From Candidatus Omnitrophota bacterium (GTDB lineage: Bacteria; Omnitrophota; Gorgyraeia; Tantalellales; Tantalellaceae), in NCBI GenBank assembly GCA_015231405.1, contig JADGBR010000002.1:4642-68641 (forward strand): 64,000 bases of DNA, in the 5' to 3' direction. Shown piece after piece: positions 2,096 to 61,573 of the stretch (the first letter of the stretch is position 1; each line of letters begins with the position of its first letter). The position numbers and the translations under genes were made by a program. The notes beneath the pieces are model-generated. The model worked only from the letters and a program-made list of their open reading frames with translations, had not been told where the DNA came from and made no database searches.

Positions 2096-3313
2096 TCATT
2101 CCTTCGTCAACATCGCCCTGATCCCCTCGTATATCGACGCCGCGGCGACATCGTGTCCTTTTTCCGTAAAATGGCCGTCGAAATCGTAGTAAAGGGACTT
2201 ATCTTCCGATCCGGCGAAGGACGGCCTGCCCTCCGTAGCCTCGGCGAAGGAGGGATATGTATCGATCCTCATTATCCCGTTCTCCGCTGAAAAATCGTTC
2301 AATAGCCCCAGGACGGACGGCCGGGGATATACCGTTCTTTTGAACCCGTATTCGGCGCGACCTTCTTTCCATTCATCCGCGCTGATCTCCAAAGCGTAGG
2401 GATATGTCACTATCACGAACGGTATCCCTTTCTTACGGAGCTCACGGGCCATGAGGGCTATATGTTCCCTGTTCTTCTGCCATAGCCCGGGAATAAGGTC
2501 CGCTTTCTCGGGCCTAAAAGCGACGAACTTGTCTATATCGAGACGCCTGTCATCCTTGTAAAGGTCATGCGACTTTCCGGTAATATTGTCGAGGACATAT
2601 TTTTTGAACCCGATGCCTCTTATCTTGAAAAGGAATTTATTGATGTCTTCCTCCAGATAAAGATAATAGCGCGAATGCCTGACCAGAAATTTTTCTATGG
2701 GATTATCGCTGAACGCCCTTACCCTTTTTTCGGGCGGGCAGCTTAAAGGAACGCCTGCGCCGTCGACAGTGACGGTCTTACCGTAATCGTGATCGTCATA
2801 AAGGTCCCCCGGGTCATAGGCCAGGATGACCATGTCCGGATCCATCCCCAGCCCTTTGTCCTTGAGGAACAGGTACTCGAGAAGAGGGGAATTGCTGGCT
2901 ATACCGCAATTTATCACCTCGAATGTACGTGGGCTCCGGCTTTCACCGTTCAATTTGCTTTCAAGCAGCTTTACGAAACATTTTTCGGCTTCCACCCCGT
3001 ATCCTTCAGTGAAGGAATCGCCTATGAAAAGTATCCTGTATACGCCTTCGCCCTTTTCTACCGGATATTCCCTGTCCCGAAGCCCCCCGGAGTTGATATC
3101 ATAGGAGACGTTCCACTCCCGCATCACTGACCGGCCCTTTCCGCCCGGGATGAACGAATGGTTGAGCTTCATATCGGCCCTCCGGTACGACATCTCCCTG
3201 GACTTGGCTCCAAGAAGCGCGCCGTGTTTCACCCGGGCGTATATCTCCCCGCCTGCCATAGCCAATAGGATCATATCGACGAATATCATCGAATAAAGTA
3301 TTCTCTTTTTCAT
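2096..3313 (-). CDS. Membrane-anchored SGNH/GDSL hydrolase-family protein (probable polysaccharide O-acyl esterase or transferase)
   Basis: N-terminal TM helix. Block I FIGDSFTEGYG. C-terminal DGHFTEKGH (a DGxH-type block V). Confidence 0.5.
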   Translation of the reverse strand: MKKRILYSMIFVDMILLAMAGGEIYARVKHGALLGAKSREMSYRRADMKLNHSFIPGGKGRSVMREWNVSYDINSGGLRDREYPVEKGEGVYRILFIGDSFTEGYGVEAEKCFVKLLESKLNGESRSPRTFEVINCGIASNSPLLEYLFLKDKGLGMDPDMVILAYDPGDLYDDHDYGKTVTVDGAGVPLSCPPEKRVRAFSDNPIEKFLVRHSRYYLYLEEDINKFLFKIRGIGFKKYVLDNITGKSHDLYKDDRRLDIDKFVAFRPEKADLIPGLWQKNREHIALMARELRKKGIPFVIVTYPYALEISADEWKEGRAEYGFKRTVYPRPSVLGLLNDFSAENGIMRIDTYPSFAEATEGRPSFAGSEDKSLYYDFDGHFTEKGHDVAAASIYEGIRAMLTKE

Positions 3314-4404
3314 TTTTGCCCCATAAGTTCGTCCAGGGCGGCTTCTACTTCCCCAGCGTCCAGCCCGGAAACGACCTTACCTTTTGCCGGGATAACGGCT
3401 CTTACTTTATCGCCCTTTGGAAGCCACTGCGCGGGCATGTGTGTCCCGTTCATGAGGACCACCGAAGCCGTCCCGGCGGCCCCGGCCAGATGAGCGGGAG
3501 CCGAATCTACGCCTATAAATATCCTGGCCCTCTTTAAAAGGAAATACAGGGATCCCAGCGTGGTCTTTCCTGAAATATCCATAAAAAAACCGTCAGCCGA
3601 GGTTGGCCGGAATTTCCCGGCGTCAACCTTTCCTCCTGCTATAACGGTCGGGAGGGAATAACGTTCCCACAAATACCCGATGATCCGCATGAACCCTTTA
3701 TCTTCCCACTCTTTCGACATATCACCGGGGAAAGGGTGCATGACCGCGTAATCTCCCGGCAACCCTATCTCCTTCAAGAGAAGGCCGGCCGACACCTTAT
3801 CTCCGTCAGGAAAAGACAGGTCTATTTTTGCTTCTTTAATGTCTATCCCAATTGCTTTTAACAACTCCAAATTCCTCCGTGTCTCATGCATTATCCCTTT
3901 GTATCTCACTTCAAGGTTAAGCAAAAAACCGCATCCTGTTATCCCGTAGCCAACCCGGTACTTCACTCCGCCAAGGAACATCGCTAGAATGTGCCTCGAA
4001 TCCCCCCTTAGGTCTATACAAAGATCATAACCCTCTTTCGATATAAGTTTAACGAGAGGGAGTAGACTCCTCACGTTCTTAAAGAACTTTGAACCGTTCC
4101 GGTCGAACCATGACGGCCGGAACTCGATGACCCGTGAGATATCCCGGTTGCTATTAACGACAGACGCCGCCCATACCGGAGCGAGAAAATGTATCTTCGC
4201 TTCCGGAAAATTTTTTCTCAAGGGGCCTATAACTACGGTCGAGTTCACGACGTCTCCTATATGATCAAGCCTGATGACCAGTATCTTTTTAACTCTTACG
4301 GGCTCGAACCTCGAGACTAACCGTACAGGAAAAAATATGGCTCTCCCGATAGCGTCGAATATTGTAAAGAACAAAACTAAGAAACGCTTCTTGTATACGT
4401 ACAT
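3310..4404 (-). CDS. Glycosyltransferase family 9 (ADP-heptose:LPS heptosyltransferase family)
   Basis: KKILVIRLDHIGDVV near the N-terminus and GVDSAPAHLAGAAGTASVVL near the C-terminus, both typical of RfaF/RfaC-type GT9. Confidence 0.8.
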   Translation of the reverse strand: MYVYKKRFLVLFFTIFDAIGRAIFFPVRLVSRFEPVRVKKILVIRLDHIGDVVNSTVVIGPLRKNFPEAKIHFLAPVWAASVVNSNRDISRVIEFRPSWFDRNGSKFFKNVRSLLPLVKLISKEGYDLCIDLRGDSRHILAMFLGGVKYRVGYGITGCGFLLNLEVRYKGIMHETRRNLELLKAIGIDIKEAKIDLSFPDGDKVSAGLLLKEIGLPGDYAVMHPFPGDMSKEWEDKGFMRIIGYLWERYSLPTVIAGGKVDAGKFRPTSADGFFMDISGKTTLGSLYFLLKRARIFIGVDSAPAHLAGAAGTASVVLMNGTHMPAQWLPKGDKVRAVIPAKGKVVSGLDAGEVEAALDELMGQK

Positions 4405-6342: not shown

Positions 6343-7461
6343 CTATTTTTTCCTGCCAAACTGCCTAACAAGCACATCCAAAATCCGTTCCGCCGCGCGG
6401 CCGTCGCCGAAAGGATTTTTCCAATCCCGCTTACGGCTCAGCATCACGCGCGCGCTTTTTACTATGTTGACGGGATCTATTCCGGCTATTATGTTCGCGC
6501 CCACATCGACCGTTTCAGGCCTTTCGGTGGAATCACGGAGCGTTACGCACGGCACTAAGAGAACGCACGCCTCCTCCTGCACTCCTCCGGAATCCGTAAG
6601 TATAAGCGCCGCGTTAGCCTCGAGCGCGATGAATTCGGTGAAGGCGCATGGCTCCATAAGTTCCATCCATCCGGAAACGGATATGCCGAATTCTTCCATC
6701 TTCTTCACGGTACGCGGGTGGGCTGGGAATATGATCGGAAGCTTGTGGTCCACTCCGATCTTCTTGATCGCTTTCAATATCCCGACGAACCTTTTTTTAT
6801 CGTCGACGTTCTCCTGTCTGTGGATAGTGAGAAGAATATATCCGCCCTTATCAGGAGAGCCCGGCAAATTCCCGGACCATTCCGGCCTTTTGAAGTAAAG
6901 CGTGTCGACGAAAGTATTCCCCGTCACAAAAACCTTTTTCCTTTTCACTCCCTCCGATAAGACTATATCCCTCGATTTTACCGTCGGGACAAAAAGCAGG
7001 TCTGACAGATGATCCGCCATTATCCTGTTTATCTCTTCCGGCATGCTCCTGTCGTAGCTCCTGAGCCCGGCCTCTACGTGAGCGAGCTTGATATCGAACC
7101 CGGTGAACGCCTTTGTGGTCGATATTTTTGACGCGGTGAGAGCGCCGGCTAAAGTGGAATTCGTATCCCCGTGGACCACAACAACGCCCGGCAGCTCCTT
7201 AAGAAGTATCTGCTCGAGCCTCATCATCATCCTGCCCGTGTGATCTCCCTGCCTCCATGGGGCCTTGGACCGTATGTTCAGGTTATAGTCCGGCATCGGC
7301 AGGTCAAGCTCCCGAAAAAACCGTCTCGACATCACGGTCGAATAATGCTGGCCGGTATGGATCGTTACGAACGGTATTTTTTCCCTTACGCTCAACCTGA
7401 TGACCGAACTCAATTTAATGATCTCGGGCCTGGTCCCGAATATGAAAGCTATCTTCATCAT
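6343..7461 (-). CDS. wecB: UDP-N-acetylglucosamine 2-epimerase (non-hydrolysing)
   Basis: MKIAFIFGTRPEIIKLSSVI...HTGQHY is the canonical WecB/MnaA N-terminus. Length 372 aa. Confidence 0.85.
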   Translation of the reverse strand: MMKIAFIFGTRPEIIKLSSVIRLSVREKIPFVTIHTGQHYSTVMSRRFFRELDLPMPDYNLNIRSKAPWRQGDHTGRMMMRLEQILLKELPGVVVVHGDTNSTLAGALTASKISTTKAFTGFDIKLAHVEAGLRSYDRSMPEEINRIMADHLSDLLFVPTVKSRDIVLSEGVKRKKVFVTGNTFVDTLYFKRPEWSGNLPGSPDKGGYILLTIHRQENVDDKKRFVGILKAIKKIGVDHKLPIIFPAHPRTVKKMEEFGISVSGWMELMEPCAFTEFIALEANAALILTDSGGVQEEACVLLVPCVTLRDSTERPETVDVGANIIAGIDPVNIVKSARVMLSRKRDWKNPFGDGRAAERILDVLVRQFGRKK

Positions 7462-8628: not shown

Positions 8629-9173
8629 TATCCCTCCGTGTTCTGTTTCTTTCTCCTAGCTTTCGCCGGGTTCCCATAACACACGGCGCCGGCAGGAACG
8701 TCCCTGGTCACGACCGAACCGGCTCCGATAACGGCGCCGGCCCCTATATTTACATCGGGAAGTATCGTCGAGTTGGCCCCGATGGACGCTCCCTTCCCCA
8801 CTTTCCATGATATCCCCGAAAGGTCCCGCGTCTTCCCGCTTTCGGGATATTTATCGTTCGTAAAAACGACATGCGGTCCTATGAAGACCCCGTCCTCCAC
8901 GATAAGCCCGTCGTATAAACAGCTTTTATTGTGCACGCGGACGTTATCCCCGATACGGACGTTCCTGTCCACATAGACCCCGTTCCCGATGACGCAGCCT
9001 TTCCCGATAACGGCCTTATCCATGATCTGCACGAAAGCCCAAATTACGGTACCTTCTCCTATAACAGCGCTTTCCGAGACAATAGCCGTCGGGTGCGTTC
9101 TCACTAAAGCCGTTCTTTTACCCATTCGATATTTCTCCTCAACCCTTCGTCTATGAACACTTTCGGCTCCCAT
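8628..9173 (-). CDS. Hexapeptide-repeat (left-handed beta-helix) sugar N- or O-acetyltransferase, PglD/WbbJ-like
   Basis: Repeated [LIV]G-x-x-x-x-I hexapeptides (VIGEGTVI, VIGKGCVIGNGVYV, IGANSTILPDVNIGAGAVIGAGSVV). The true start may be the internal Met at 9125. Confidence 0.8.
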   Translation of the reverse strand: MGAESVHRRRVEEKYRMGKRTALVRTHPTAIVSESAVIGEGTVIWAFVQIMDKAVIGKGCVIGNGVYVDRNVRIGDNVRVHNKSCLYDGLIVEDGVFIGPHVVFTNDKYPESGKTRDLSGISWKVGKGASIGANSTILPDVNIGAGAVIGAGSVVTRDVPAGAVCYGNPAKARRKKQNTEG

Positions 9174-10069
9174 CCGAACAGCTTTTTAGCCAGCGAATAA
9201 TCGCATAAAAGTTTCGGCACCTGCGCCAGCCGGTCCTTTGTGTGCACTATCTTGGACTTCGACCGGCAGAGCTCTTTTATTTTTTCGGCAATATAGTTGA
9301 TCGTAATGGCCTCTCCCGTACCGAAATTCACCGATCTCCCGACGGCATCTTTGTGTATCCCCATTAACAGGAAAGCGTCCACCATGTCGTCGACATAGGT
9401 AAAATCCCTCGACTGGTTCCCGTTCCCGTGTACGGTGATGGGCTTATTCCCGAGAGCTAGCTCGATGAATTTTGGTATGACGTCGTATGTGTGTCGCGGC
9501 CCGTAGGTGTTAAATGGCCTTATCACGGCAACGGGAAGCCCGTAGGTATTCCAGTAAGCATAGCAGTATTTATCCGCGGCGACCTTGCTGGCGGCGTAAG
9601 GAGAGGACGGAAAGAACAGGTGGTCCTCATTGATCGAGCCGCCTATCGTCATGCCGTATATTTCGCTCGAGGAAGTGCAGATGATACGTTTTATGCCGGA
9701 CCCTTCCTTCACCGCGTGAAGCATGTTAAGGGTCCCTATGACGTTCGTTTCCATGACCTCCATCGGATGGTCAAAAGAGTTAGGCACATAAGCGTCGGCG
9801 GCCAGGTGGAAAATTATATCGGGTCTAGCCTTTATCGCCAGGTCTTTGGCGTCGGGCGAAGCGATATTGCCGGTAATTATCTCGTCCAAGTCCTTTTCCG
9901 CATGCGATAAATTCTTTAAAGTGTATTTGGTGGTGCCGGTAGTCGAATTCCCTCTTACAAATATCGATACTTTGGCTCCCTCGCCGAGAAGTTTTTCGGT
10001 AAGGTGAGACCCCATGAACCCGTCCGCCCCCGTAACCAGGACTCTTTTTCCTCTGTATTTACCGAACAT
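9104..10069 (-). CDS. NAD-dependent epimerase/dehydratase (extended SDR)
   Basis: VLVTGADGFMGSHL Rossmann motif and a YxxxK region. 321 aa. Confidence 0.8.
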   Translation of the reverse strand: MFGKYRGKRVLVTGADGFMGSHLTEKLLGEGAKVSIFVRGNSTTGTTKYTLKNLSHAEKDLDEIITGNIASPDAKDLAIKARPDIIFHLAADAYVPNSFDHPMEVMETNVIGTLNMLHAVKEGSGIKRIICTSSSEIYGMTIGGSINEDHLFFPSSPYAASKVAADKYCYAYWNTYGLPVAVIRPFNTYGPRHTYDVIPKFIELALGNKPITVHGNGNQSRDFTYVDDMVDAFLLMGIHKDAVGRSVNFGTGEAITINYIAEKIKELCRSKSKIVHTKDRLAQVPKLLCDYSLAKKLFGWEPKVFIDEGLRRNIEWVKERL

Positions 10070-10969: not shown

Positions 10970-12697
10970 TCAGATCACTTTCCGACGGGAAATGAATTTT
11001 CTCGCGATCATTTTCAATGTTTTTTTAATGGAACCGCATTTAAGGTCTTCCGAGGGAGTTTCGGGCTCGTAATCCAACGCTAACTTCACCGATATTTTAA
11101 TTTTTTCGGATGCGGACAAACGCGATATTTCACCGTCAAATCCTGGGTCCGGCGGGGGATAATCACCGGACCCGTGGTCATTTGAGCCTTTCCTTTTCAT
11201 CACTCTGTATTTTCCTATTGTCCAGAACTCATGGATATCATTCATAGAGACTTGTTTAAGAGCCCGCCTATTGACGGCGTGGTCAAGTATGGCCGATAGT
11301 ATCGCGGGTACTTCCGGATATTTCGGGCTTGTATGCGCGTAAACTATGACCGGTATGGAATTGGATATCATGTAGTCTATAGCATTTTCATAATACATTA
11401 TGATCGCCTCTATGTTCCCGTACCTCTTATCGAGAAAGAGTTCCGGGGCCACCGGAAATACGGGGATCTGGAGAACACGCGACCAACCGTCCCTAAGACA
11501 TGGATACGACGGATATCCGGAATAATCGTATGCGAAATCGGACGAATATAAATAACCTTCATCCTCCAGCGCCTTCATAAGTGAGGGGACATAGCGCCCT
11601 GTAGGGGCAGCGAACCCGGTCGTCACGATACCGATATTCCTGAAAAACTCTCCGGCTTTTCTTATATTATGCCTGTTGGTGGCGTAATCCCCGTAGGCGG
11701 CGTGATAATATCCGTGCGAACCCACGTCTATCCCGAGACCACGGCATTTTATTATCTCGTCAGGAGCTTTCTCGAACGATCTTACGTTAAAAAATATCGT
11801 TATCGCGCGGCTGTACTTCGAGAAAACCGGATAATACGCGTTGAACGTCCCCTTCTCATACTCGTCAGCGTCTATCCTGAGACAAAAGCTGTCGGAGGGG
11901 AACGTCTGTTCATTTTTTGAACGCCCGAAAGACCTTTCGGAAGCGACCCTTTCCCTGACCCTCATCCCCCGGGGTCCGAAATCCTTGTAAACCGACCGGC
12001 GGGCTTTTTTAAAAAAACCTGTCCCGGCATCCTCCAGGCCCATCCTGTCGGAAGCTTTATAGGACAGGCTGAGTGACCCGTCCTGTGCTATACCGGCGCA
12101 TGCCCCGCCCTCTATCATCCTCGCGGTTTTATCCAGAAGCTCCGCCCCGAGCGAGAGGTTCTTCATCCTTAACGACCGAAGATCATCATGGGGACGCACC
12201 TTAAGGGTTTTCCGCATCAGGATATCGCCCGCGTCCAGATCTTCGCTTATAAAATGAACTGTTACGCCTATCTTATCGATATCGTTATTGCGAAGAGCCC
12301 AGAATTCAGAATCGGCGCCCCTGTAATACGGCAGTATGCCGGAATGGAGATTTATGGCCCCTCGGGAAGCCTTACCGAAAATGTCGGCCGAAAGTTTACG
12401 CGTCCCGACGACAATGATAAGTTCCGGGGATATTTCCCCGAGCGCTTTCCCGGATTCCGGGGAGTTTATGTCTAGGACCCTGACAACTTTCAGGGCGGGG
12501 TATCTTCGCGCGAGCGCCTCATAATTCATTGCAAGTATCGCTCCATTAAGGAGATAAAGGGCTCTCTTGACCCTCGCCTTTAAGGTCACGGGCTTGACCT
12601 CGTAAACGATGGCCCTAATGTCATGACCCCGGGAAAGAAGCTTCCCCGAAACCATAAGGCCGTCAAGAATATCGCTGGTAAGTAACGCTATCCTCAT
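10970..12697 (-). CDS. Fusion protein: N-terminal formyltransferase domain (Fmt/ArnA-N-like) plus C-terminal NodB-type polysaccharide deacetylase/deformylase (ArnD-like)
   Basis: INLHSGILPYYRGADSEFWALRNND matches the formyl_transf core. The C-terminal half has NodB homology (RIDADEYE...GSHGYYH...). Confidence 0.6.
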   Translation of the reverse strand: MRIALLTSDILDGLMVSGKLLSRGHDIRAIVYEVKPVTLKARVKRALYLLNGAILAMNYEALARRYPALKVVRVLDINSPESGKALGEISPELIIVVGTRKLSADIFGKASRGAINLHSGILPYYRGADSEFWALRNNDIDKIGVTVHFISEDLDAGDILMRKTLKVRPHDDLRSLRMKNLSLGAELLDKTARMIEGGACAGIAQDGSLSLSYKASDRMGLEDAGTGFFKKARRSVYKDFGPRGMRVRERVASERSFGRSKNEQTFPSDSFCLRIDADEYEKGTFNAYYPVFSKYSRAITIFFNVRSFEKAPDEIIKCRGLGIDVGSHGYYHAAYGDYATNRHNIRKAGEFFRNIGIVTTGFAAPTGRYVPSLMKALEDEGYLYSSDFAYDYSGYPSYPCLRDGWSRVLQIPVFPVAPELFLDKRYGNIEAIIMYYENAIDYMISNSIPVIVYAHTSPKYPEVPAILSAILDHAVNRRALKQVSMNDIHEFWTIGKYRVMKRKGSNDHGSGDYPPPDPGFDGEISRLSASEKIKISVKLALDYEPETPSEDLKCGSIKKTLKMIARKFISRRKVI

Positions 12698-13605
12698 CCG
12701 ATAAAGTCCTTCAGGTCGTATTTACGTTCAAGGAACTCTGTTTTCATTAGAGCCCTCTTCTTAAGAGCAAGCGGCAGACGTTTCAACGCTCCGATGAACC
12801 CGATAAGCACCGTGTCCTGTCCCTTGAGAAGGAGAACTAATATCCTTGGCAAGGTGAGAAGAATATGCGCGAACAGTATGTCCTTCTCCCTCACGTTCTT
12901 CCAGATAAAGAGGAACATGTTCCTGTGGGCTATCGTCATCTTCCTCTTTTTCCCGTACTCCCTGTGAAAAGTGGTCGACTCGTCATGGAATACCACCGAC
13001 CGCGGCTCGTAAACCCCTTCCCACCCCAGACACATCGCCCTGAAACAAAGGTCGACCTCCTCCCATATGCCGGGAAGGTATAAGTCGTCGAACCCGCCCA
13101 TCGAAACAAAAGCGTCCCTCCGGAAGGCTCCGGTAGCGATCGAATGGGTCTTGCCTCCGGACATGAAATTATCATAATCCACCCTCATTTTTACCGCCCC
13201 CAGAGAGAATCCCAGGAAAGACTTTCCCCCATTGAAAGTGCCGTCGAAGTTCATGAGCCTGGGAGCGGCGAACATTATCTTTTCGTTCGAGAAATGCGCG
13301 ACGAGCGGGTCAATAAAATCCGGCTCCGCCTTCATATCGGTATTGAGTAGTATGACCACGTCGCTGTCGAGGCCCGCGACGAAAGCGTTGTAAGAAAATA
13401 GGACCAGGTTCCGTGGAGCGGGTATGAATCCCACTCCCGGGAAAGACCCTGCGACCAGCTCACGGCTCGAGTCGCTCGAACAATTATCGAGAACGTATAC
13501 CGCTGAATCGTGTACGGATCTTATGGCTGCCGCGCATACGGAGGGAAGGTACTTTTCCAAAAGGTCTCTGCCGTTATAGTTCAGTATGATTATGTCTATT
13601 TTCAC
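12694..13605 (-). CDS. Glycosyltransferase family 2
   Basis: MKIDIIILNYNGRDLL...YVLDNCSSDSS. Confidence 0.8.
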   Translation of the reverse strand: MKIDIIILNYNGRDLLEKYLPSVCAAAIRSVHDSAVYVLDNCSSDSSRELVAGSFPGVGFIPAPRNLVLFSYNAFVAGLDSDVVILLNTDMKAEPDFIDPLVAHFSNEKIMFAAPRLMNFDGTFNGGKSFLGFSLGAVKMRVDYDNFMSGGKTHSIATGAFRRDAFVSMGGFDDLYLPGIWEEVDLCFRAMCLGWEGVYEPRSVVFHDESTTFHREYGKKRKMTIAHRNMFLFIWKNVREKDILFAHILLTLPRILVLLLKGQDTVLIGFIGALKRLPLALKKRALMKTEFLERKYDLKDFIG

Positions 13606-13628
13606 GGAAAATACCTTTCACTTCTTCT

Positions 13629-15197
13629 TTATCGTTCCAACGTCTTTCCGGCGTTTCGGTCAGTCAAACAGAAAATCACGACGAAAAAAGCCGAAACCAG
13701 AAAAATAGCCGCGAGCGCTCCTGTAATGACGTAAACCAGATAAGAGTATTCAGGCGCGAAATGGAGTACTTTTATGGACCAGGCGTCAAACGCGTTATAA
13801 TCTTTCATACTGGCAATGATGGGCTTCGCGAACCAGTAATCGGGATCGTACATGAAAGGCACGTCTCTTCCGGATAACAGATAACTTACCCTGGCCATGA
13901 ACATCTTCCAGGCACCCGATATCGGAGAGAGGTCCGGCACAAAGTTTATTAGGTATTCTTCCTGGCCCAGGCGCTCTTTCACGAAAAAATAGAATTTGGA
14001 CTGATTGATCAGCATGCACGGCGCCATGGCGAGGAATCCGGCCATTGAAAAGAGCGTAATAAGTATCCTGGCGGCTAAACCTTTTGAGCGCGAAAGGTAT
14101 CCCCCGAGTACTAAAGCCATAAAAGGGACCGCGATAAGCAGGTATCTGGGTCCCCACGAGAAAAGCGATCCCCTTCTGAAATGGTTGGAATAAAAGAACA
14201 ATACCCCAAGGAAAAACATGAGGTAAAATATCATTTCCTTATCCTTCTTTCTGAATATATCCCTCACGGCGAAGATCGACAGCGCAAGCGGGATGTTATA
14301 ATAAAGGAACCCTTTGCCCGGGCTGACAAGGTAATAAAAGAGCCCTTTGACGAGATGCTGTCCCCTGAGAAGATGCCCCTTCATGTCCGTAACGCTGTAC
14401 GCCGTTCCCCCCGGAAAAAGATCGGAGTAGCCTTTGTAATAAGCGAACGCGAGAGTTGAGGAGACCGCCAATGACAAAAAGAAAGAGACCGCCGCGATAT
14501 ACTTACTTTTTCGGTCCAGCGGGCTGTCACATATCACCCAAAGGCCGTACAGAGTGAAGAAAGGTATATAAATAAAACTTTGCTGCCTCGCGAACATAGC
14601 GCACGCGCCGGCCAATGCCGCGAGGAACAGGAACCGCAACTTTTGTCCATCCTTATACATCAGGATACAGAGCGCCGACGTCAACAGGAACAGAATTAAC
14701 GTCGGCTCCGAAAAACCCGTGCGCGAGTAGACCGGAGCCATGGTACAGAGGCCATACACGAGCGATATCGCAACCGCGCCGGACCGTCCATGTCCCAGCC
14801 TGAGAGATATCAGGAAAATAAGCAACGCGTTGAAAGTCGATACGGTCGGGTTGAAGAAAGACACCGCCATCATCGTTATAAAATCGTGAGGGATATTCAC
14901 CAAAAAACGCGCCGCGAAATGTCCAAAGGCGTAAAAAGGGGTTATAAGGGCCGGAACTCCTATCCCCGCTCTTGAAGAATATCTTTTCCCGTCATTACCC
15001 ACAATGCCAGCATTCACCTTGTAACCAAGTGCGTTCTTTCCGTCCGGCTTCTCTATAAAAGCCGTTCCTTGCCCCAGCACGATACTTTCGGCGGTAAGGT
15101 AATCCTCGTAACCGTCGCCCCCGAAATGCCCTATCGAGAAAAATACGTAGAAAGATAAAAACAAAAAGAAGACCGCAAATCCTGTTTTATAGTTCAT
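13629..15197 (-). CDS. Polytopic membrane glycosyltransferase, GT-C fold (ArnT/PMT-like, GT39/GT83-like)
   Basis: 522 aa, more than 10 predicted TM helices, with an ArnT/PMT-like N-terminal loop region. Confidence 0.45.
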   Translation of the reverse strand: MNYKTGFAVFFLFLSFYVFFSIGHFGGDGYEDYLTAESIVLGQGTAFIEKPDGKNALGYKVNAGIVGNDGKRYSSRAGIGVPALITPFYAFGHFAARFLVNIPHDFITMMAVSFFNPTVSTFNALLIFLISLRLGHGRSGAVAISLVYGLCTMAPVYSRTGFSEPTLILFLLTSALCILMYKDGQKLRFLFLAALAGACAMFARQQSFIYIPFFTLYGLWVICDSPLDRKSKYIAAVSFFLSLAVSSTLAFAYYKGYSDLFPGGTAYSVTDMKGHLLRGQHLVKGLFYYLVSPGKGFLYYNIPLALSIFAVRDIFRKKDKEMIFYLMFFLGVLFFYSNHFRRGSLFSWGPRYLLIAVPFMALVLGGYLSRSKGLAARILITLFSMAGFLAMAPCMLINQSKFYFFVKERLGQEEYLINFVPDLSPISGAWKMFMARVSYLLSGRDVPFMYDPDYWFAKPIIASMKDYNAFDAWSIKVLHFAPEYSYLVYVITGALAAIFLVSAFFVVIFCLTDRNAGKTLER

Positions 15198-15200
15198 TTC

Positions 15201-16649
15201 TCATCCTTTTAGCACCGCCAGGGGCTTTAGCTTCGCTACCTTCCGGGCAAGCCCGATAGTCGAAAGATAGTCCGCCGCCAGACCGACGTTCTTGAAACAG
15301 CGAGGGTCCTGTCTTACTATTTTTTTGGAATTACCTTTGTAAAGGGTTATTCCCCTCCCCTTGAGAAGATCGACAAGCTCTTCCCTGGTTGACGACACCT
15401 CACCTATCTTATCTTTCCTGATACGGCCTGAACCGTGCCCGGCGGAATTGTAAGTACGGCTATTCCCTTCCATAGCCAGCGAGATATAGGTCGGGTCCCC
15501 CATGGATCCCGGAAGAAAGACAGGAGTTCCGGTATCTTCGAAAGGCGTCCCGGTGGCTTTCCCCGGGGGAAGAGCTCTTACACCACCTGTCCGATGCACC
15601 CACATATCCGACCCGGAATGACGCTCGAGATTGATCGACATATGCGAAAGATCATACAGAGTTCTCACCTCTTTGGTCTCCGGCCCGAATATTCCGCTCA
15701 CAGCCTTTTTAATTTTGTACGATATCAAAGCCCTGTTCGCGTAAGCGAAGTTGGCTCCGCCCATAAGAGCCGAAAGATAGAGCCCGGCGCTCGACGACCC
15801 TGCCTCAAGACCGAAAAGCGGGCATTCGCCGTCACGCGTCCGGAACATCATTTCTCGGAACAGCCCAAGCCTGGACCGGTTAAACGAGGACAACATCCGT
15901 TCGACGGCCACAAAACCCAGCATTAACGGCTCTCTGGCGCCGAGTGTCCTGGGTGAATACAAGTTCGTGAGCATGGCTCCGAAGCCTCCCGAGCCGGAAT
16001 GCGCCAAAATGTAACAACCGTTCTTCTTTATGCCCAATACTCCGGCGTTCTTTTCGTCGAATACTTCCTCCACCGTCTGCAATTCTATGAAATGGTTCCC
16101 GCCCCCCAGGATACCCAGCCTCCGCCTGGACAGCTCCATAACATGTTTCGGTACAGCGTCTTCTAGAAGCGAGTCTGCCCCCGGAACTCCGTTAAAAGCA
16201 TTGCCCCGGAGTTCGACATTATCGAGGTCGTCGGGACAATCCTTATACCTCGCCAGCACCCATCCCGCGCCCTCCCTCATTATGCCCTTTACATCCGAAA
16301 GAGCCAACTTCTCTTCAGTTAGCGAACCAAGACATATGGAATCCGCTAATTTAGAAAACAATTCGTTCATTCTCACGGGAGTGACGCGATCGTTCGTGAA
16401 AGGGAGCTCGAGCATCCTCATGCCGCAGTTCGGACCTGAGACCATAAGCTGCGGGAATATGTGCCCCGGGGAAACAGCCACGGCTCCGGTAGGAAAATCG
16501 TTGTCGAATTTGTCGTGGATATCTATTAGCCCGACAACGGGACTCGCGATCCTTTTGTCGGAAGCTATCAGGGCCAACTGCACTAGCGCCCTCTCAGAAG
16601 GCATAAGCTCATCGGGGGTATAAATGGCCACTTTATCCCGTTTATACAT
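15201..16649 (-). CDS. rtcB: RtcB-family RNA ligase-like protein
   Basis: GGGNHFIELQ, HSGSGGFG, WVHRTGGVRA and YNSAGHGSGR correspond to RtcB metal-ligand and His-GMP motifs. The start is placed at the internal Met that overlaps the upstream stop (ATGTATAA). Confidence 0.65.
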   Translation of the reverse strand: MYKRDKVAIYTPDELMPSERALVQLALIASDKRIASPVVGLIDIHDKFDNDFPTGAVAVSPGHIFPQLMVSGPNCGMRMLELPFTNDRVTPVRMNELFSKLADSICLGSLTEEKLALSDVKGIMREGAGWVLARYKDCPDDLDNVELRGNAFNGVPGADSLLEDAVPKHVMELSRRRLGILGGGNHFIELQTVEEVFDEKNAGVLGIKKNGCYILAHSGSGGFGAMLTNLYSPRTLGAREPLMLGFVAVERMLSSFNRSRLGLFREMMFRTRDGECPLFGLEAGSSSAGLYLSALMGGANFAYANRALISYKIKKAVSGIFGPETKEVRTLYDLSHMSINLERHSGSDMWVHRTGGVRALPPGKATGTPFEDTGTPVFLPGSMGDPTYISLAMEGNSRTYNSAGHGSGRIRKDKIGEVSSTREELVDLLKGRGITLYKGNSKKIVRQDPRCFKNVGLAADYLSTIGLARKVAKLKPLAVLKG

Positions 16650-17607
16650 CTTCACTCTCCGCGCAAACCTCAACGACCTCTTTTTCGGCGAACAGATTGT
16701 GCGAATACCTGAGCCGCACGAAAAAGAACATCCCGGATACGAGTGCCGTAGAGACCACCACAGCCCTGTCGATCGCGGCGACCATAAAGCCTTCCGCAAC
16801 AGAGAACCCTATTAAAAGAGAACTGACAGAGACGACCGTTTCCCTTATGCCCATATTGGAAGGTATCAGATTCACCATGTTCGACAGCTCCGTTATAGGT
16901 ATTATCGCCGCGACATTAAGGAATGAAACCTCGTACGAAAGAGCCGTGAAAACGACATAGTACCGCAAAATGAAAGCAAGATTTATTCCCATCTGGATCG
17001 CCGCCAGGCTATATATGAGCCTTCTGTCCACTTTAACGCTTTTGATGTCTTTTATGGCTTCCGATATCCTGGTGAATACGCCGTATCTATTGAGAAAGCC
17101 GGGTATAGGCACAAAAAAAACGGCCACGGAGACGGCCATGGCGCATACGTAAATGACCACAGGAACCAACAGGACCGGGGTTCCATGCTCGGCCATATAG
17201 ACCAGGCTCCCGGCGAGACCTACCAGACCGCATGTAAAAACGGCGGCGACGCTTCGTATGAGCCCGGTCGACAGGAATTTTGTATAACCGAAACCGTACT
17301 TTGACCTCAGATAAACGGCGTTCGTGACGATACCGGCGTTAGGCAGAAAAAGGTTATAGAACGCCATCATTACGCTCAGCCCGAAACACTCGTTCCTTTT
17401 AATTTTCACATCGTGCCTCCTAAGCAGCACGTGGAGCTTCATCCCGTCAAGATATCTCCCGGCCAGATATATAAACGCGATGAGCAAGAACTCGAGCTTA
17501 TGTTCCAAGAAACTCGCTTTTATGACTTCAAATTTCTTCCCGAGTATAAGAATTATGAATATCAACGTGGCGATAAGGACAATACTGTTAAACTTTTTTT
17601 TCAGCAT
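16642..17607 (-). CDS. Integral membrane protein, LPG-synthase-TM / flippase-like domain family
   Basis: 321 aa with about 8 TM helices. The N-terminus MLKKKFNSIVLIATLIFIILIL...RRH is typical of the UPF0104 family. Confidence 0.45.
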   Translation of the reverse strand: MLKKKFNSIVLIATLIFIILILGKKFEVIKASFLEHKLEFLLIAFIYLAGRYLDGMKLHVLLRRHDVKIKRNECFGLSVMMAFYNLFLPNAGIVTNAVYLRSKYGFGYTKFLSTGLIRSVAAVFTCGLVGLAGSLVYMAEHGTPVLLVPVVIYVCAMAVSVAVFFVPIPGFLNRYGVFTRISEAIKDIKSVKVDRRLIYSLAAIQMGINLAFILRYYVVFTALSYEVSFLNVAAIIPITELSNMVNLIPSNMGIRETVVSVSSLLIGFSVAEGFMVAAIDRAVVVSTALVSGMFFFVRLRYSHNLFAEKEVVEVCAESEDV

Positions 17608-20689: not shown

Positions 20690-21643
20690 TCAACCTTTCT
20701 TTTTCTTGTCGTAAAAATTTTTCTTTAGCCTGTACAGTATCTCCTCATTGAGCTTCCTGTTGGCGGACATGATATCCCCCAAGAGTCCTATCATGATTAT
20801 CATGAAGCCGGTTATAAGACACGCCGACGCTATTATCAAAGATTGTACATGCCCTCCCTGATGGCGGGTGAAGTGTGCCGCAAGGAAACGCGCGACAAGA
20901 AAAAGGCCGGCGAATATGGGGATAAGGCTTAGTTTGACGAAACTTTTCAAAGGCTCGTACATCATATAGATGCGCAGCATCGTTACAACGCTTCTCTTTA
21001 TGTACGAAGGGACGCTTTTTATCAGCCTGGATTCCCTGAGCTTGGCATTTGTGGAGATGTTCACATAGGTTATCGGAAGCTCTTTCAACCCAGCCTGAAT
21101 TATGCTTTCTATCGTATACGTATAATTCGAAAATATATTAAGCCGCATAGCTGCGTCCCTGGAATACGCCCTGAACCCGCTGGTAGTATCCGGAATGTCC
21201 GTTTTCGAGAACTTTCTCACGACTGAGCTGCCTATTCCCTGGAGCCATTTCTTGACCGGCGAAAAGTGGCTGATAGAAGCGATATCACGGCACCCGATCA
21301 CCATTTCAGCCTTACCTTCAAGGATCGGCTCTATCAGTTTGGGGATATCCGCGCCGCTATACTGGTTATCGCCGTCGATATTCACTATTATGTCCGCTCC
21401 AGCTTCCACGGAGCTATCCAGGCCCCGCCTGAAAGCCTCAGCCAGACCCCTATTAACCGGGAGATCGACGATATGCCTGACGCCCAGCCCCCTCGCTATC
21501 TCGACTGTAGCGTCGGTCGAGCCGTCGTTGACCACCAGAACCTCGATCTCGTCGATGCCCGCGATCTTTTTCGGAAGGTCTCTAAAAGCCTCCGGCAAAG
21601 TTTTTTCCTCGTTGAAACAGGGTATCTGAATGATGAGCTTCAT
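20690..21643 (-). CDS. Polyprenol-phosphate glycosyltransferase (GT2, ArnC/GtrB/DPM1-like with C-terminal TM helices)
   Basis: MKLIIQIPCFNEEKTL...VVNDGSTDAT...NIDGDNQY, plus two C-terminal TM helices. Confidence 0.75.
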   Translation of the reverse strand: MKLIIQIPCFNEEKTLPEAFRDLPKKIAGIDEIEVLVVNDGSTDATVEIARGLGVRHIVDLPVNRGLAEAFRRGLDSSVEAGADIIVNIDGDNQYSGADIPKLIEPILEGKAEMVIGCRDIASISHFSPVKKWLQGIGSSVVRKFSKTDIPDTTSGFRAYSRDAAMRLNIFSNYTYTIESIIQAGLKELPITYVNISTNAKLRESRLIKSVPSYIKRSVVTMLRIYMMYEPLKSFVKLSLIPIFAGLFLVARFLAAHFTRHQGGHVQSLIIASACLITGFMIIMIGLLGDIMSANRKLNEEILYRLKKNFYDKKKKG

Positions 21644-53237: not shown

Positions 53238-53244
53238 AGATCTC

Positions 53245-57757: not shown

Positions 57758-58476
57758 GAATACTCCCCCCGCAAATCCGCCATCTTGATCATTACAAGGC
57801 TCTTGAACGATCTTATCCCATCCCTAAGGGGCTTAACCTTCGACGTCAGTTTATGTTCCCACTTGACCGGAACTTCCGTCACCCTCAGCTTGAATTTTTC
57901 AGCCAGGAAAAGGACTTCCGTATCGAAAGACCAATCGTCCATTTTCTGCGCCGAAAAGAGTTTTTTCGCCGCTTCGCTCCTAAAGAGCTTGAAGCCGCAA
58001 TTAAGGTCCCGAACGGAACAGCCGAATATTATCCTCGAAAGCAATATATATACCTGCCCCATCATCACCCTCGATAACGGTTCCGGAACAATGATCTGCG
58101 AACCCCTCTCGCGCCTTGTCCCGATGGCTATGTCGGAATGTTTAATGACCCCGAGAAATTTGTCTATTTCCGATATCGACGTCGAATTGTCGGCGTCCAT
58201 GAAAAGGACGACATCGCCCCTCGACGCCATGATACCCTTACGGACGGTATACCCCTTGCCTTTATTGACCTCGTTCCTGAGGACCTTGAACTCCTTGAAA
58301 AGACGGCGGCCCGAACATGCTTCACCAAAAGTCCCGTCGCCCGAACCGTCATCGACGACTATCACTTCGCTTGAATAGTCTTTTTTTGAAAGAAAGCCCG
58401 ATATCTCCCGAAGAGTATCCCCGATATTTTTTTCCTCGTTATACGCAGGTATGACCACTGAGAGATAAATATCCAC
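57751..58476 (-). CDS. Polyprenol-phosphate sugar synthase (GT2, DPM1/CsbB-like), second copy
   Basis: LSVVIPAYNEEKNI...VIVVDDGSGDGT...MDADNST. Confidence 0.75.
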   Translation of the reverse strand: MDIYLSVVIPAYNEEKNIGDTLREISGFLSKKDYSSEVIVVDDGSGDGTFGEACSGRRLFKEFKVLRNEVNKGKGYTVRKGIMASRGDVVLFMDADNSTSISEIDKFLGVIKHSDIAIGTRRERGSQIIVPEPLSRVMMGQVYILLSRIIFGCSVRDLNCGFKLFRSEAAKKLFSAQKMDDWSFDTEVLFLAEKFKLRVTEVPVKWEHKLTSKVKPLRDGIRSFKSLVMIKMADLRGEYSA

Positions 58477-59636
58477 TATGCCCCTTTTTTAATGAATTCC
58501 GTGACCTTCTCTATGACATACGCTATTGCTTCTCCGGAAAGCTCAGGATAGACCGGCAGGGATATTATCTCATCCGATAATTTCTCCGATACCGGATAAT
58601 CTTTTTTATCGTAACCGCATGAAGCGTAACATTTCTGGCTGTATAACGGTACCGGATAATACACCCTGGCCCCTATCCCGTTCGCTTCCAGAAAATCCTT
58701 AAGTCCTTCCCGGTCCTTGACCGCTATGGTGTATTGGTGATAAGTGTGTACGTTCCCCGGCGCCACTTTAGGCGTCCTTATCGGCAGACCTTTAAATGCG
58801 GAGTCGTATTTAGCGGCTACACTTCGCCTCGCTTCGAGCCATTTGTCAAGATATCTGAGTTTCACTCTGAGAACAGCCGCCTGCAGGCTGTCCAGTCTTG
58901 AGTTATACCCCAATTCTTCATGTATGTATTGCGTCTTGCTCCCGTGAACTCTTAACGACTTTACATGGTCGATGAGATCCTTATTATCGGATATCACCAT
59001 ACCCCCGTCGCCGAAACCGCCGAGATTTTTACTCGGGAAAAAACTTAAACAGCCCGAATCACCCAAAGATCCGGCCTTTTTACCCCTATAGGTAGCCCCT
59101 ATAGCCTGGGCCGTATCCTCTATTACCTTAAGCCCGTATTCCCCGGCGATATCGAGTATCCGCGTCATATCCGCGCATTGCCCGTACAGGTGCACCGGAA
59201 TTATGGCCTTGACTTTGCCCTGCTGACCATGGCCCATGGACGATGGACCATGGACCTTGGCGTTGTGGTTCTTCAAATACTCTTCCACCTTATTTACGTC
59301 GATGTTATACGTTTCCGGATCTACGTCCACGAATACCGGCCGGGCTCCGACGATAGATATAGCTTCGGCCGTAGCCATAAAAGTGAACGGCGTAGTTATC
59401 ACCTCGTCTGCCCGGCCTATTCCGAGCGCGACGAGCGACAATATCAAAGCGTCTGTCCCCGAAGCGACTCCGGAAGCGTATTTCGTCCCGGAATAAGCGG
59501 CCACCTCATCCTCGAGCGCTTTGACCTCTTCAGATAAGATGAACTTCTGGCTGCCGATGACCCGGAGAACCGTCTCATCTATTTCTTTCTTAATGCTTTT
59601 ATACTGCGCTTCGAGATCTAGTAATGGTACTTTCAT
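58476..59636 (-). CDS. DegT/DnrJ/EryC1/StrS-family PLP-dependent sugar aminotransferase
   Basis: 386 aa. GSQKFILSEEVKALEDEVAAY, GTDAL, AIIPVHLYG and SFFPSKNLGGFGDGG motifs. It contains an in-frame heptamer-repeat insertion (HGPSSMGHGQQ). Confidence 0.85.
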   Translation of the reverse strand: MKVPLLDLEAQYKSIKKEIDETVLRVIGSQKFILSEEVKALEDEVAAYSGTKYASGVASGTDALILSLVALGIGRADEVITTPFTFMATAEAISIVGARPVFVDVDPETYNIDVNKVEEYLKNHNAKVHGPSSMGHGQQGKVKAIIPVHLYGQCADMTRILDIAGEYGLKVIEDTAQAIGATYRGKKAGSLGDSGCLSFFPSKNLGGFGDGGMVISDNKDLIDHVKSLRVHGSKTQYIHEELGYNSRLDSLQAAVLRVKLRYLDKWLEARRSVAAKYDSAFKGLPIRTPKVAPGNVHTYHQYTIAVKDREGLKDFLEANGIGARVYYPVPLYSQKCYASCGYDKKDYPVSEKLSDEIISLPVYPELSGEAIAYVIEKVTEFIKKGA

Positions 59637-61561: not shown

Positions 61562-61573
61562 CGCTCCTCGTTG

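Follow-up and report, generated by a model that had tools for sequence, protein, structure and literature searches.

Compact NDP-sugar N-formyltransferases of the WbkC/WbtJ/Rv3404c/PseJ class formylate 3-/4-amino groups that are made by a DegT aminotransferase of the same gene cluster. To our knowledge, every characterised sugar N-formyltransferase similar to the N-terminal domain described below (ArnA-N, WbkC, WbtJ-type enzymes and Rv3404c) formylates a nucleotide sugar at a 3- or 4-amino group, and we know of none among these enzymes that uses a 2-amine or a lipid-linked sugar. Replacement of the N-acetyl group of a hexosamine by another N-substituent is carried out by LpxC/LpxD and by NDST, the latter within one polypeptide. 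In the Arn pathway, leading to aminoarabinose (Ara4N), the amino sugar is formylated, transferred to undecaprenyl phosphate and then deformylated (PMC12690121, PMC12650200). During the synthesis of Nod factors, NodC and NodB are followed by N-methylation through NodS and by acylation through NodA, the amine being freed in the cytoplasm (PMC11681206). In the WabH/WabN system, GlcNAc is added to the lipid A-core acceptor in the LPS core and then deacetylated, and the GlcN of the Edwardsiella core is re-N-acylated with glycine, giving GlcN-Gly (PMC5485987). Sugars with a 2-formamido group occur naturally, such as GalNFoA in the O6 antigen of P. aeruginosa (PMC11706664); our literature search retrieved no description of their biosynthesis, nor of a fusion between a formyltransferase and a deacetylase.

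Such a fusion is encoded in the window analysed here, a stretch of 64,000 nt on contig JADGBR010000002.1 (GCA_015231405.1) of an uncultured Candidatus Omnitrophota bacterium (Table 1). The initial annotation had described this gene as a single polypeptide combining a formyltransferase with a NodB-type domain, and both domains had been named correctly, with catalytic residues that appear intact in each; the motif quoted in its support, HSGILPYYRGADSEFWALRNND, is present at aa 118-139. Both domains lie in one ORF and exceed their Pfam cut-offs: PF00551 (Formyl_trans_N) matches aa 80-186 with 65.1 bits (gathering cut-off 26.1) and PF01522 (Polysacc_deac_1) matches aa 282-383 with 31.3 bits (cut-off 23.1). 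A protein from an Omnitrophica MAG at NCBI is 100% identical to the fusion. The AlphaFold2 model (pLDDT 87, pTM 0.84) consists of two modules, an N-terminal domain at about aa 1-255 and a barrel at about aa 270-495, joined by a low-confidence linker (aa 258-265) and followed by a helical tail (aa 518-574). A whole-protein Foldseek query matched the N-terminal domain only, and the C-terminal module was therefore modelled separately. Neither a signal peptide nor a TM segment was found in the fusion protein, and the formyl donor is cytoplasmic, both in keeping with a cytoplasmic location. An assembly or frameshift artefact was ruled out, as the same architecture recurs in many independent genomes, and the possibility that one domain is a dead pseudo-enzyme was rejected on account of the invariant catalytic residues in both. 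The formyltransferase-deacetylase fusion is genuine but rare.

Table 1. Features of the window referred to in the text; close loci belong to the set of 83 loci compared.
Feature	Coordinates	Strand	Basis and remarks
Formyltransferase-NodB deacetylase fusion, whole gene	10970..12697	-	575 aa; stop codon 10970-10972; ORF and Pfam domains
N-terminal formyltransferase domain, aa 1-255	11933..12697	-	Catalytic N116/H118/D155; SGILPYYRG folate-loop motif
NodB/CE4-fold de-N-acylase domain, aa 270-495	11213..11890	-	Motifs LRID276AD278, SH328GYYH332, YAH455
Conserved C-terminal helical tail, aa 496-575	10973..11212	-	Secondary structure; charge and hydrophobic moment; invariant G522, D542, E544, T547, P548
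GT2 glycosyltransferase, 303 aa, directly upstream of the fusion	12694..13605	-	Pfam; ATGA stop/start overlap
GT4 glycosyltransferase, 351 aa	5161..6216	-	Pfam; conserved downstream partner across phyla
GT9, heptosyltransferase family, RfaQ/HepIII-like	3310..4404	-	Pfam and NCBIfam; conserved partner
WecB, non-hydrolysing UDP-GlcNAc 2-epimerase	6343..7461	-	NCBIfam TIGR00236, 355 bits (cut-off 210)
Polytopic membrane protein, 522 aa, GT-C candidate	13629..15197	-	No Pfam match of its own; L002 orthologue matches PMT_2
LPG_synthase_TM / flippase-like membrane protein, same operon	16642..17607	-	Present in 13/24 close loci
Polyprenyl-phosphate-type GT2 (AglJ/PpgS/ArnC-like), first gene of the conserved Omnitrophota operon	20690..21643	-	NCBIfam
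SDR beside the fusion	9104..10069		Best as Pal/LegB/RmlB-like
DegT aminotransferase	58476..59636		Best as PseC/LegC
UXS-type SDR	63344..64000		Best as UDP-xylose synthase

The catalytic residues of the N-terminal domain correspond by alignment to N102/H104/D140 of E. coli ArnA, so that the Asn/His/Asp triad is complete; it is invariant across 32 full-length homologues and is also kept in split and otherwise fused relatives. Foldseek related this domain to Fmt, ArnA-N, FDH-N and WbkC (E 1e-15 to 1e-11, rmsd ~3 Å over ~220 residues). It shares fold, size and triad with the compact NDP-sugar N-formyltransferases, with TM values of 0.68 for WbkC and 0.65 for Rv3404c, and the formyltransferase of the split-gene version described below (234 aa) has the typical size of that class. 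The ArnA equivalog model NF005998 matched the N-terminal part only (60.5 bits, cut-off 777), and the C-terminal decarboxylase (SDR) fused in ArnA is absent here, the NodB domain being the C-terminal partner. Judged from these features, the domain is a member of the N10-formyl-tetrahydrofolate-dependent transformylase superfamily and is predicted to transfer formyl to an amine.

In the C-terminal domain, R274, D276, D278, H328, H332 and H455 are invariant among the same 32 homologues, and conservation of D276/D278, H328/H332 and H455 reaches at least 90% in the wider family; these residues are the predicted metal ligands and catalytic Asp and His; the Asp-His-His set of NodB enzymes is thus present, with a DxD motif (D276/D278) instead of the canonical DD of NodB/CE4. 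Profile searches with this domain matched 1z7a, 3qbu, 3cl6, 4m1b and 3rxz, and the top Foldseek matches were 3rxz, 1z7a, 3s6o, 3cl6 and 3qbu (E ~1e-10, TM ~0.6-0.68); neither NDST nor LpxC was found among the top structural matches. The initial annotation had called it an ArnD/NodB-type domain of the ArnD family, and comparison with ArnD gave a mixed picture. R274/D276/D278 and H328/H332 do align to R7/D9/D11 and H106/H110 of ArnD, hhalign links the two (probability 81%, E 1.3e-5) and the domain sits in the NodB1.2 structural neighbourhood that also contains ArnD (PMC10967932). However, the ArnD structure 8t0j ranks only 11th in Foldseek (E 2.5e-8), the BLASTP match (E 0.029 over 36 aa only) is insignificant, and no ArnD-named family occurs among the NCBIfam matches of the fusion (E up to 1). 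The insertion specific to ArnD, located between its DxD strand and His motif (EcArnD ~aa 41-95), is unmatched in hhalign, leaving a gap in the query, and ArnD is no closer to the domain than PuuE or HP0310. The last helix of the helical tail that follows (aa 556-574) is strongly cationic, with a net charge of +8, and may bind to the surface of the membrane; according to the consensus, this tail is also found in stand-alone and methyltransferase-fused deacetylases.

The neighbourhoods of 83 loci, 24 close and 59 distant, were compared over 10 kb on each side of the deacetylase. The fused architecture is found in about 33 Omnitrophota protein clusters with 38-51% identity (32 full-length proteins besides that of the window) and is carried by 11 species-level genomes. 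In four further genomes two neighbouring genes with a 16-nt overlap encode the two domains in the same operon slot, for instance genes 9312-10016 and 10001-11011 of L003, and a second, independent fusion, to a distant deacetylase subtype, is seen in P0122/P0124 and in L086, a protein from Brocadiaceae. These fused and overlapping pairs, together with the independent fusion, make the functional link between formyltransferase and deacetylase robust. The distant-type deacetylases carry an N-terminal extension of ~160-220 aa in which no Pfam domain was found; a decayed Fmt domain was ruled out as its origin, as L086 has an Fmt domain in addition to this extension.

What stays constant across the 83 loci is the deacetylase module, beside a 303-aa GT2, a GT4 and a GT9, and its synteny with these genes (GT2_303, GT4_351, GT9) spans Omnitrophota to cultured Planctomycetota. 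A block of methyltransferase, deacetylase, GT4 and GT9 is found in Singulisphaera acidiphila DSM 18658 (NC_019892.1, ~3.70-3.72 Mb; L060), Tundrisphaera (L042, L055) and Tautonia (L054, L078). The 303-aa GT2, which is predicted to be translationally coupled to the fusion through the ATGA overlap, is the partner gene with the most consistent linkage (21/24 close, 41/59 distant loci); homologues of the GT4 are found in 18/24 and 46/59 loci, respectively, and of the GT9 in 14/24 and 39/59. The GT9 points to an LPS-core-like, lipid-anchored glycan. WecB lies in the same operon block, is syntenic in 14 of the 24 close loci, and would be a source of UDP-ManNAc as HexNAc donor.

The slot beside or within the deacetylase gene is variable. 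A formyltransferase occupies it in 15 of the 24 close loci, and the deacetylase lacks any formyltransferase in 57 of the 59 distant and in at least 7 of the 22 assessable close loci. Other partners are a class-I methyltransferase (as a fusion in L005, L016 and P0117, as a neighbouring gene in 32/59 distant loci), a NodU/CmcH carbamoyltransferase (L018) and an AMP-binding ligase (L032, L045). Even close relatives of the window's deacetylase module, at ~43-49% identity to it, have a methyltransferase or carbamoyltransferase where Fmt would stand, or no partner; the architecture tree was built by NJ, without support values. A DegT aminotransferase within 10 kb was absent from 82 of the 83 loci (none in the 24 close, one in the 59 distant). 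As most loci have no formyltransferase, the general substrate of the family cannot be a formamide produced by a partner Fmt, and with DegT missing, the only step encoded locally that would yield a sugar amine is deacetylation. A remote aminotransferase beyond the 10 kb flanks is possible, for example the DegT of the window, which belongs to the same island at a distance of 46 kb.

The initial annotation had placed the fusion in an Ara4N-like pathway, in which a transient formyl group is added and then removed, with ArnC-, ArnT-, ArnB- and ArnA-C-like genes nearby. In such a scheme, the N-terminal domain would formylate an NDP-aminosugar, a GT2 would move the sugar to polyprenyl phosphate, the C-terminal domain would deformylate it, and a flippase and GT-C protein would deliver the cationic sugar. 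The two proteins of the E. coli pathway belong to the same two superfamilies, are encoded by adjacent and overlapping genes, act on the cytoplasmic side and share the identical formyltransferase triad as well as LRIDxD, HxxxH and the NodB1.2 subclass with the fusion. A polyprenyl-phosphate-type GT2, a flippase-like protein and a GT-C candidate are indeed present in the Omnitrophota operons, and DegT and UXS genes in the window. The resemblance of this GT2 to ArnC is partial: it is 24% identical to EcArnC over 208 aa (BLASTP, E 1e-13), but its best NCBIfam score is to AglJ (101 bits), ahead of PpgS (63) and ArnC (34). BLASTP detected no similarity between the GT-C candidate and ArnT, although the L002 orthologue of the candidate matches PMT_2; the candidate has a weak NCBIfam match to LA_3751/3752, occurs in 14/24 close and 3/59 distant loci and belongs to an Omnitrophota-specific polyprenyl-phosphate branch of the operon, and it may, but need not, be tied to the fusion. 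Nearly all distant loci lack both the GT-C and the flippase genes, as do the fusion-bearing L013 and L028; neither gene was detected on the short contig of L014, which carries the fusion. The DegT protein scores best as PseC/LegC (249/247 bits; ArnB 177 against a cut-off of 631), and the gene described as UXS/ArnA-C-like is, on its similarity scores, a true UDP-xylose synthase (276 bits to human UXS1, 62 to ArnA-C), 50 kb from the fusion and not syntenic with it.

In contrast to the arn operon, no orthologues of ArnB, ArnA-C, ArnT or ArnE/F were detected in the local context of the fusion, and the partner of the deacetylase is interchangeable with methyl- and carbamoyltransferases. A deformylase would be pointless where related deacetylases are paired with one of these enzymes or with nothing. 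What remains of the pathway claim are the domains themselves, the kinship to ArnD within NodB1.2 and the types of genes present, and we regard the addition and removal of a transient formyl group as distinctly improbable. The comparative context argues for a predicted deacetylase rather than deformylase specificity of the C-terminal domain.

We propose instead, with a probability of about 0.45 and based on sequence and gene context, that the fusion may be a bifunctional cytoplasmic enzyme that swaps N-acetyl for N-formyl on a cell-envelope sugar. The NodB-fold domain would remove N-acetyl by hydrolysis from a HexNAc residue of the GlcNAc or ManNAc type, and the N10-formyl-tetrahydrofolate-dependent domain would then formylate the freed amine. 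The substrate would most likely be held by a lipid anchor on the inner side of the cytoplasmic membrane, possibly the sugar that the coupled 303-aa GT2 has just transferred to a lipid-linked or LPS-core-like oligosaccharide; polyprenyl-phosphate-HexNAc could be an alternative substrate in Omnitrophota. We infer the order of the reactions, the identity of sugar and carrier, and the action of both domains on the same nitrogen. The partners found in the slot (formyl-, methyl- and carbamoyltransferase, AMP-binding ligase) can each decorate a free amine, which is suggestive rather than decisive, since O-modification by the methyl- or carbamoyltransferase is possible. A NodB-type hydrolase beside a formyltransferase would moreover run the risk of a futile cycle, unless acetyl and formyl are discriminated.

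By analogy, the proposed exchange would follow the logic of NodB/NodS/NodA, LpxC/LpxD and NDST, in which a nitrogen is deacetylated and then decorated again. The likeness to the Nod system lies in the de-N-acetylation of a GT2 product by a NodB-fold enzyme, with subsequent re-decoration of the freed amine (PMC11681206), and the GT2, class-I methyltransferase and NodU/CmcH carbamoyltransferase classes are also found around the present deacetylase module. In contrast to that system, re-capping would fall to a physically fused, folate-dependent formyltransferase, the C-terminal domain sits in the divergent NodB1.2 neighbourhood instead of with canonical NodB, the context is that of an envelope or LPS-core-like glycan (GT9, GT4, Wzx) and not of a lipochitooligosaccharide, and the partner methyltransferases were not identified as NodS family by Pfam (a single NodS match, E 0.009). 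NDST and LpxC/LpxD differ in their second activity, a sulfotransferase or an acyl-ACP transferase, as well as in organisms and substrates. WabH/WabN resembles the proposed reaction by its described function, the deacetylation of an added GlcNAc, with re-acylation of the GlcN in related cores, and by its association with heptosyltransferase-family genes; we know of no re-acylating enzyme fused to WabN.

The same deacetylation and formylation could also take place on a nucleotide sugar (UDP-HexNAc to UDP-HexN to UDP-HexNFo) before transfer by the neighbouring GT2. The size and shape of the N-terminal domain, closest to WbkC and Rv3404c, would suit such a route, as would the lack of a TM segment, the translational coupling of the GT2 and the WecB in the operon. 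The cationic C-terminal helix, the NodB1.2 subclass and the synteny with core-type GT4/GT9 transferases and Wzx flippases suit a membrane-anchored substrate better. We know of no NodB-fold enzyme that acts on UDP-HexNAc, and consider this route rather remote.

Alternatively, both domains may be active on one glycan or pathway at different positions, the fusion serving co-localisation and stoichiometry only; the Fmt domain could, for example, act on a 3-/4-amino sugar supplied by a remote aminotransferase and the NodB domain deacetylate another residue. Known sugar N-formyltransferases use NDP-3/4-amino sugars, a PseC/LegC-like aminotransferase is encoded in the window, and the Pal/LegB-like SDR and a NeuD-family N-acetyltransferase adjoin the fusion, all of which would fit this division of labour. 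Glycan enzymes of these lineages are moreover promiscuously fused (the nearest Fmt relatives to a GT4 in P0187 and to a GT-C in P0157, and methyltransferases to GT2), so that consecutive steps are not implied by fusion. Against it, Fmt and deacetylase came together at least twice (in the close type and in the distant L086/P0122), and the pair has been kept in the form of overlapping genes. None of the 15 close loci with an Fmt has an aminotransferase within 10 kb, unlike the clusters of the compact N-formyltransferases, and the partner is a deacetylase instead; the SDR is missing from 4 of the 13 assessable Fmt-positive loci (L001, L010, L017, L025). Separate sites of action are therefore unlikely in our view, if somewhat less so than the nucleotide-sugar route.

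The pairing of an ArnA-N with an ArnD-type domain alone does not indicate an aminoarabinose or polymyxin-resistance pathway, which calls for caution in annotation. Beyond the acetyl-to-formyl exchange itself, we tentatively suggest, as a less likely extension, a modular editing of N-substituents in the envelope glycans of the PVC group and related bacteria, in which a dedicated cytoplasmic NodB1.2-type HexNAc deacetylase is combined with a transferase that can be exchanged (formyl, methyl, carbamoyl or acyl-adenylate), with the present fusion as its founding example. No other enzyme is known to produce 2-formamido hexosamines by exchanging acetyl directly for formyl on a sugar linked to a lipid, and the fusion would in that case be the first to do so, as well as the first folate-dependent formyltransferase with a non-nucleotide sugar as substrate. 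If the proposed chemistry is correct, it would provide a simple enzymatic route to the 2-N-formyl amino sugars found in bacterial antigens, and the reach of sugar N-formyltransferases would extend beyond the 3/4-amines of nucleotide sugars. Uncultured Omnitrophota and cultured Planctomycetota would then have in common a deacetylase-centred module that varies the charge and the N-substituent of their envelope glycans.

The formyltransferase (Fmt) and NodB (CE4) de-N-acylase domains do lie on one polypeptide, as the initial annotation had proposed from the sequence. Fusion is confirmed by the domain matches, by full-length homologues, by invariant residues and by a two-domain AlphaFold2 model. 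The Pfam search suggested at that stage placed both domains above their cut-offs (Formyl_trans_N at aa 80-186, 65.1 bits vs 26.1; Polysacc_deac_1 at aa 282-383, 31.3 bits vs 23.1), and the motif quoted there corresponds to aa 118-139. An NCBI protein of a Candidatus Omnitrophica MAG matches it at 100% identity, and 32 more 90%-identity clusters combine the same two domains (38-51% identity, 88-100% of the fusion covered); clusters covering both halves number only about 6-8 among 1.84 billion representative proteins. Across 32 aligned full-length members, the Asn/His/Asp triad of formyltransferases (N116, H118 and D155, equivalent to N102, H104 and D140 of E. coli ArnA) is invariant, as are the residues of the predicted metal-binding and catalytic site of the NodB domain (D276, D278, H328, H332 and H455) and R274. 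The model (pLDDT 87, pTM 0.84) consists of two compact domains with a low-confidence linker (258-265) between them and a helical tail at the C-terminus.

NCBIfam gave superfamily-level similarity only, far under equivalog cut-offs, for both the N-half (ArnA N-part, Fmt, PurN) and the C-half (PdaB, PuuE, XrtA-system deacetylase). The N-domain is about equally like Fmt, ArnA-N, the hydrolase domain of 10-formyl-THF dehydrogenase and compact NDP-sugar N-formyltransferases (E values of about 1e-11 in a phmmer search of PDB and 1e-15 to 1e-11 in Foldseek), WbkC having the top target-normalised TM score (0.68). Its closest Fmt relatives all retain the triad and likewise carry fusion partners: a PMT_2 GT-C membrane glycosyltransferase in P0157 (708 aa), a GT4 in P0187 (654 aa) and DUF3880+Glyco_trans_1_2 (+deacetylase) in P0122 (951 aa). 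These fusions point to an Fmt subfamily dedicated to glycans, which may work at the membrane.

The C-terminal module, modelled on its own (pLDDT 87), had as best structural matches 3rxz, 1z7a, 3s6o, PuuE 3cl6 and HP0310 3qbu (E about 1e-10), with Salmonella ArnD (8t0j) only 11th (E 2.5e-8); by sequence, the family profile matched 1z7a, 3qbu, 3cl6, 4m1b and 3rxz. A published survey places 3RXZ, 3QBU, 1Z7A and 3S6O closest to ArnD itself, in the 'NodB1.2' subclass (PMC10967932); the modelled module therefore shares ArnD's structural neighbourhood, yet without specific ArnD-likeness. In a direct comparison with the ArnD encoded by a bona fide arn operon of E. coli (L007), the fusion gave no significant BLASTP match (E 0.029 across 36 aa), and the module profile matched ArnD with a probability of 81% (E 1.3e-5). 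In this alignment LRID276AD278 pairs with LRID9VD11 and SH328GYYH332 with H106..H110, and an ArnD insertion of ~45 residues is unmatched.

Eighty-three non-redundant loci carrying the deacetylase module, 24 close (mostly Omnitrophota) and 59 distant, were compared over 10 kb either side by phmmer searches of their ORFs with the window proteins as queries; the architecture tree was built without support values. Among the close loci, Fmt is fused to the deacetylase in eleven and forms a separate 226-240-aa ORF directly upstream in four, including L003, where the Fmt gene (234 aa) overlaps the deacetylase gene by 16 nt. A methyltransferase (MT) is fused in place of Fmt in two (L005, as GT2+MT+deacetylase, and L016), and a GT2+MT gene lies directly upstream in two others (L026, L027). 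Three (L009, L015, L018) have neither partner, and two were left unassessed, the module lying at a contig edge. In L018 a NodU/CmcH-family carbamoyltransferase (8220-9896) occupies the Fmt slot of other genomes, between a GT2 of the 303-aa type and the stand-alone deacetylase. Behind its stand-alone deacetylase, L009 encodes a 631-aa HAD/NIF-phosphatase-like protein (10950-12842) and a 380-aa ORF without Pfam match (13072-14211); a GT2_303+methyltransferase fusion lies further downstream.

The distant loci belong to Planctomycetota (cultured Singulisphaera, Tundrisphaera and Tautonia among them), Bacteroidota, Ignavibacteriales and others, and encode a deacetylase of roughly 500-540 aa whose N-extension carries no annotation. 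Directly upstream lies a methyltransferase (32/59), an AMP-binding, adenylate-forming ligase (2/59; L032 4106-5458 and L045 1094-2446) or elsewhere a GT2 or Wzx flippase, and downstream lie homologues of the window GT4 (46/59) and GT9 (39/59). For N-acylation, the ligases could supply activated acyl or aminoacyl groups. Fmt occurs in only two distant loci, one of which, L086 (Brocadiaceae), holds an independent GT+TPR+Fmt+deacetylase fusion. Cultured Planctomycetota (L050 9461-11044, Singulisphaera sp. PoT; L060, S. acidiphila DSM 18658; L042/L055, Tundrisphaera; L054/L078, Tautonia) share a fixed block, GT2 ... MT - deacetylase - GT4 - GT9, and therefore offer an experimentally tractable entry point; the conserved ~160-220-aa N-extension of their ~500-aa deacetylase had no Pfam match. 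The Fmt-deacetylase pairing is real, recurrent and probably functional, and is fused, split or independently fused by lineage. The deacetylase is the constant element, however, and Fmt belongs to a set of small-group transferases that can replace one another in the slot beside it.

In the Arn pathway, UDP-Ara4N is formylated, ArnC transfers the sugar and ArnD deformylates it (PMC12690121, PMC12650200). A similar cycle, which the initial annotation had favoured for an Ara4N-like aminopentose, is distinctly unlikely here. It would need a linked aminotransferase and decarboxylase, which were not found (a DegT aminotransferase lies within 10 kb in 0/24 close and only 1/59 distant loci), and it leaves unexplained the close deacetylase relatives in which a methyl- or carbamoyltransferase, or nothing, replaces Fmt. 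Of the genes that had been read as Arn-like in the window, the DegT protein scores best as PseC/LegC and lies 46 kb from the fusion, the UXS/ArnA-C-like ORF is the C-terminal part of a true UDP-xylose synthase (human UXS1, 276 bits; ArnA-C, 62 bits), and BLASTP found no resemblance between the GT-C candidate and ArnT.

Features of the glycan island around the fusion gene, in window coordinates
Feature	Position	Strand	Remarks
GT9, heptosyltransferase-family	3310-4404	-	
GT4	5161-6216	-	
WecB, bona fide	6343-7461	-	355 bits vs cut-off 210
(alpha/alpha)-toroid protein		-	
NeuD-family hexapeptide acetyltransferase		-	
Pal/LegB/RmlB-like SDR	9104-10069	-	
PilZ-domain gene	10348-10737	-	intergenic DNA either side: 10070-10347, 10738-10969
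Formyltransferase-deacetylase fusion	10970-12697	-	575-aa ORF
GT2_303	12694-13605	-	303 aa; directly upstream of fusion, ATGA overlap
GT-C candidate	13629-15197	-	522 aa, polytopic
RtcB homologue (RNA ligase family)	15201-16799	-	
LPG_synthase_TM/flippase-like	16642-17607	-	
GT4, BshA/TuaC-like	17601-19844	-	747 aa; aa ~535-598 (C-terminal segment) match HprK-related kinase families
Methyltransferase		-	
AglJ/PpgS/ArnC-like polyprenyl-phosphate GT2	20690-21643	-	
CysN/C-like, CysD sulfate adenylyltransferase, two APS kinases, 729-aa sulfatase-family protein	28397-28918, 29814-32003, 59750-63160	-	
HisH-like glutamine amidotransferase, HisF-like cyclase	36411-37807	-	adjacent
Further GT-C-type candidates	49820-51514, 51531-53339, 54647-56941	-	
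DegT aminotransferase	58476-59636		
UDP-glucuronate decarboxylase (UXS)	63344-64000	-	C-terminal 218 aa, running past window end; listed ORF begins at internal GTG

The window is a single long glycan island on the minus strand. The GT-C/flippase/polyprenyl-phosphate GT2 set is common in Omnitrophota (14/24) and nearly absent elsewhere (3/59), and was undetected in the fusion-bearing loci L013, L014 (contig just 5.4 kb) and L028. With two PMT_2 proteins and one YfhO besides the 522-aa protein, the window holds at least four GT-C-type candidates, each with a small GT2 nearby. The RtcB homologue, an RNA-repair enzyme oddly placed in a glycan operon, is a conserved operon member, flanked by the flippase-like gene and GT-C and present in nine of the close loci (e.g. 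L001 3358-4854, L002 4466-5953, L003 3719-5245) plus L030/L034; in the window, its ORF is listed from a TTG that gives a 158-nt overlap with the upstream gene, which makes a start further downstream probable. The PilZ gene, a possible c-di-GMP receptor, separates fusion and SDR in the window genome only, the SDR directly following the fusion in L002, L020 and L023; GC content reaches its minimum for the window in the 10-12 kb bin (0.442 vs about 0.50 elsewhere). The CysN/C-like, CysD, APS kinase and sulfatase-family genes suggest a putative PAPS supply for a sulfated glycan, and we take the HisH-like/HisF-like pair to resemble the amidotransferase pairs of some O-antigen and nonulosonic-acid clusters.

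The simplest reading would be that the NodB domain strips an N-acetyl group to leave a free sugar amine, on which the partner enzyme would then put a formyl, methyl, carbamoyl or acyl group; the fusion would yield a 2-formamido hexosamine. For deacetylation and then formylation at one nitrogen we estimate a probability of roughly 0.45. Methyl- and carbamoyltransferase partners may instead target hydroxyls. Glycan enzymes are freely fused in these lineages, and the two domains could therefore act at different positions, which we consider unlikely beside the recurrent pairing. For sequential action on one amine, the substrate would probably be lipid-anchored and lie on the inner side of the membrane, because the fusion carries no signal peptide or TM segment, ends in a conserved cationic helix (net charge +8) and has cytoplasmic-face GT neighbours of LPS-core or lipid-linked type. 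To our knowledge, the relatives of the N-domain whose substrates are known act on 3/4-amines of nucleotide sugars. That the same deacetylate-formylate chemistry takes place on a UDP-sugar seems rather improbable.

The logic of deacetylation and re-decoration is already well known, and is followed by LpxC/LpxD and NDST. The same logic as proposed for the fusion is found in the Nod system, where NodB deacetylation precedes NodS and NodA (PMC11681206), and in the LPS core, where WabH/WabN follow it and related cores contain GlcN-Gly (PMC5485987). 2-Formamido sugars are natural, e.g. GalNFoA of P. aeruginosa O6 (PMC11706664); in the literature searched, we found no account of a formyltransferase-deacetylase fusion or of a route to such sugars. 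The finding is moderately interesting to glycobiologists, and an ArnA-N and ArnD domain pair alone is no ground for calling an aminoarabinose pathway.
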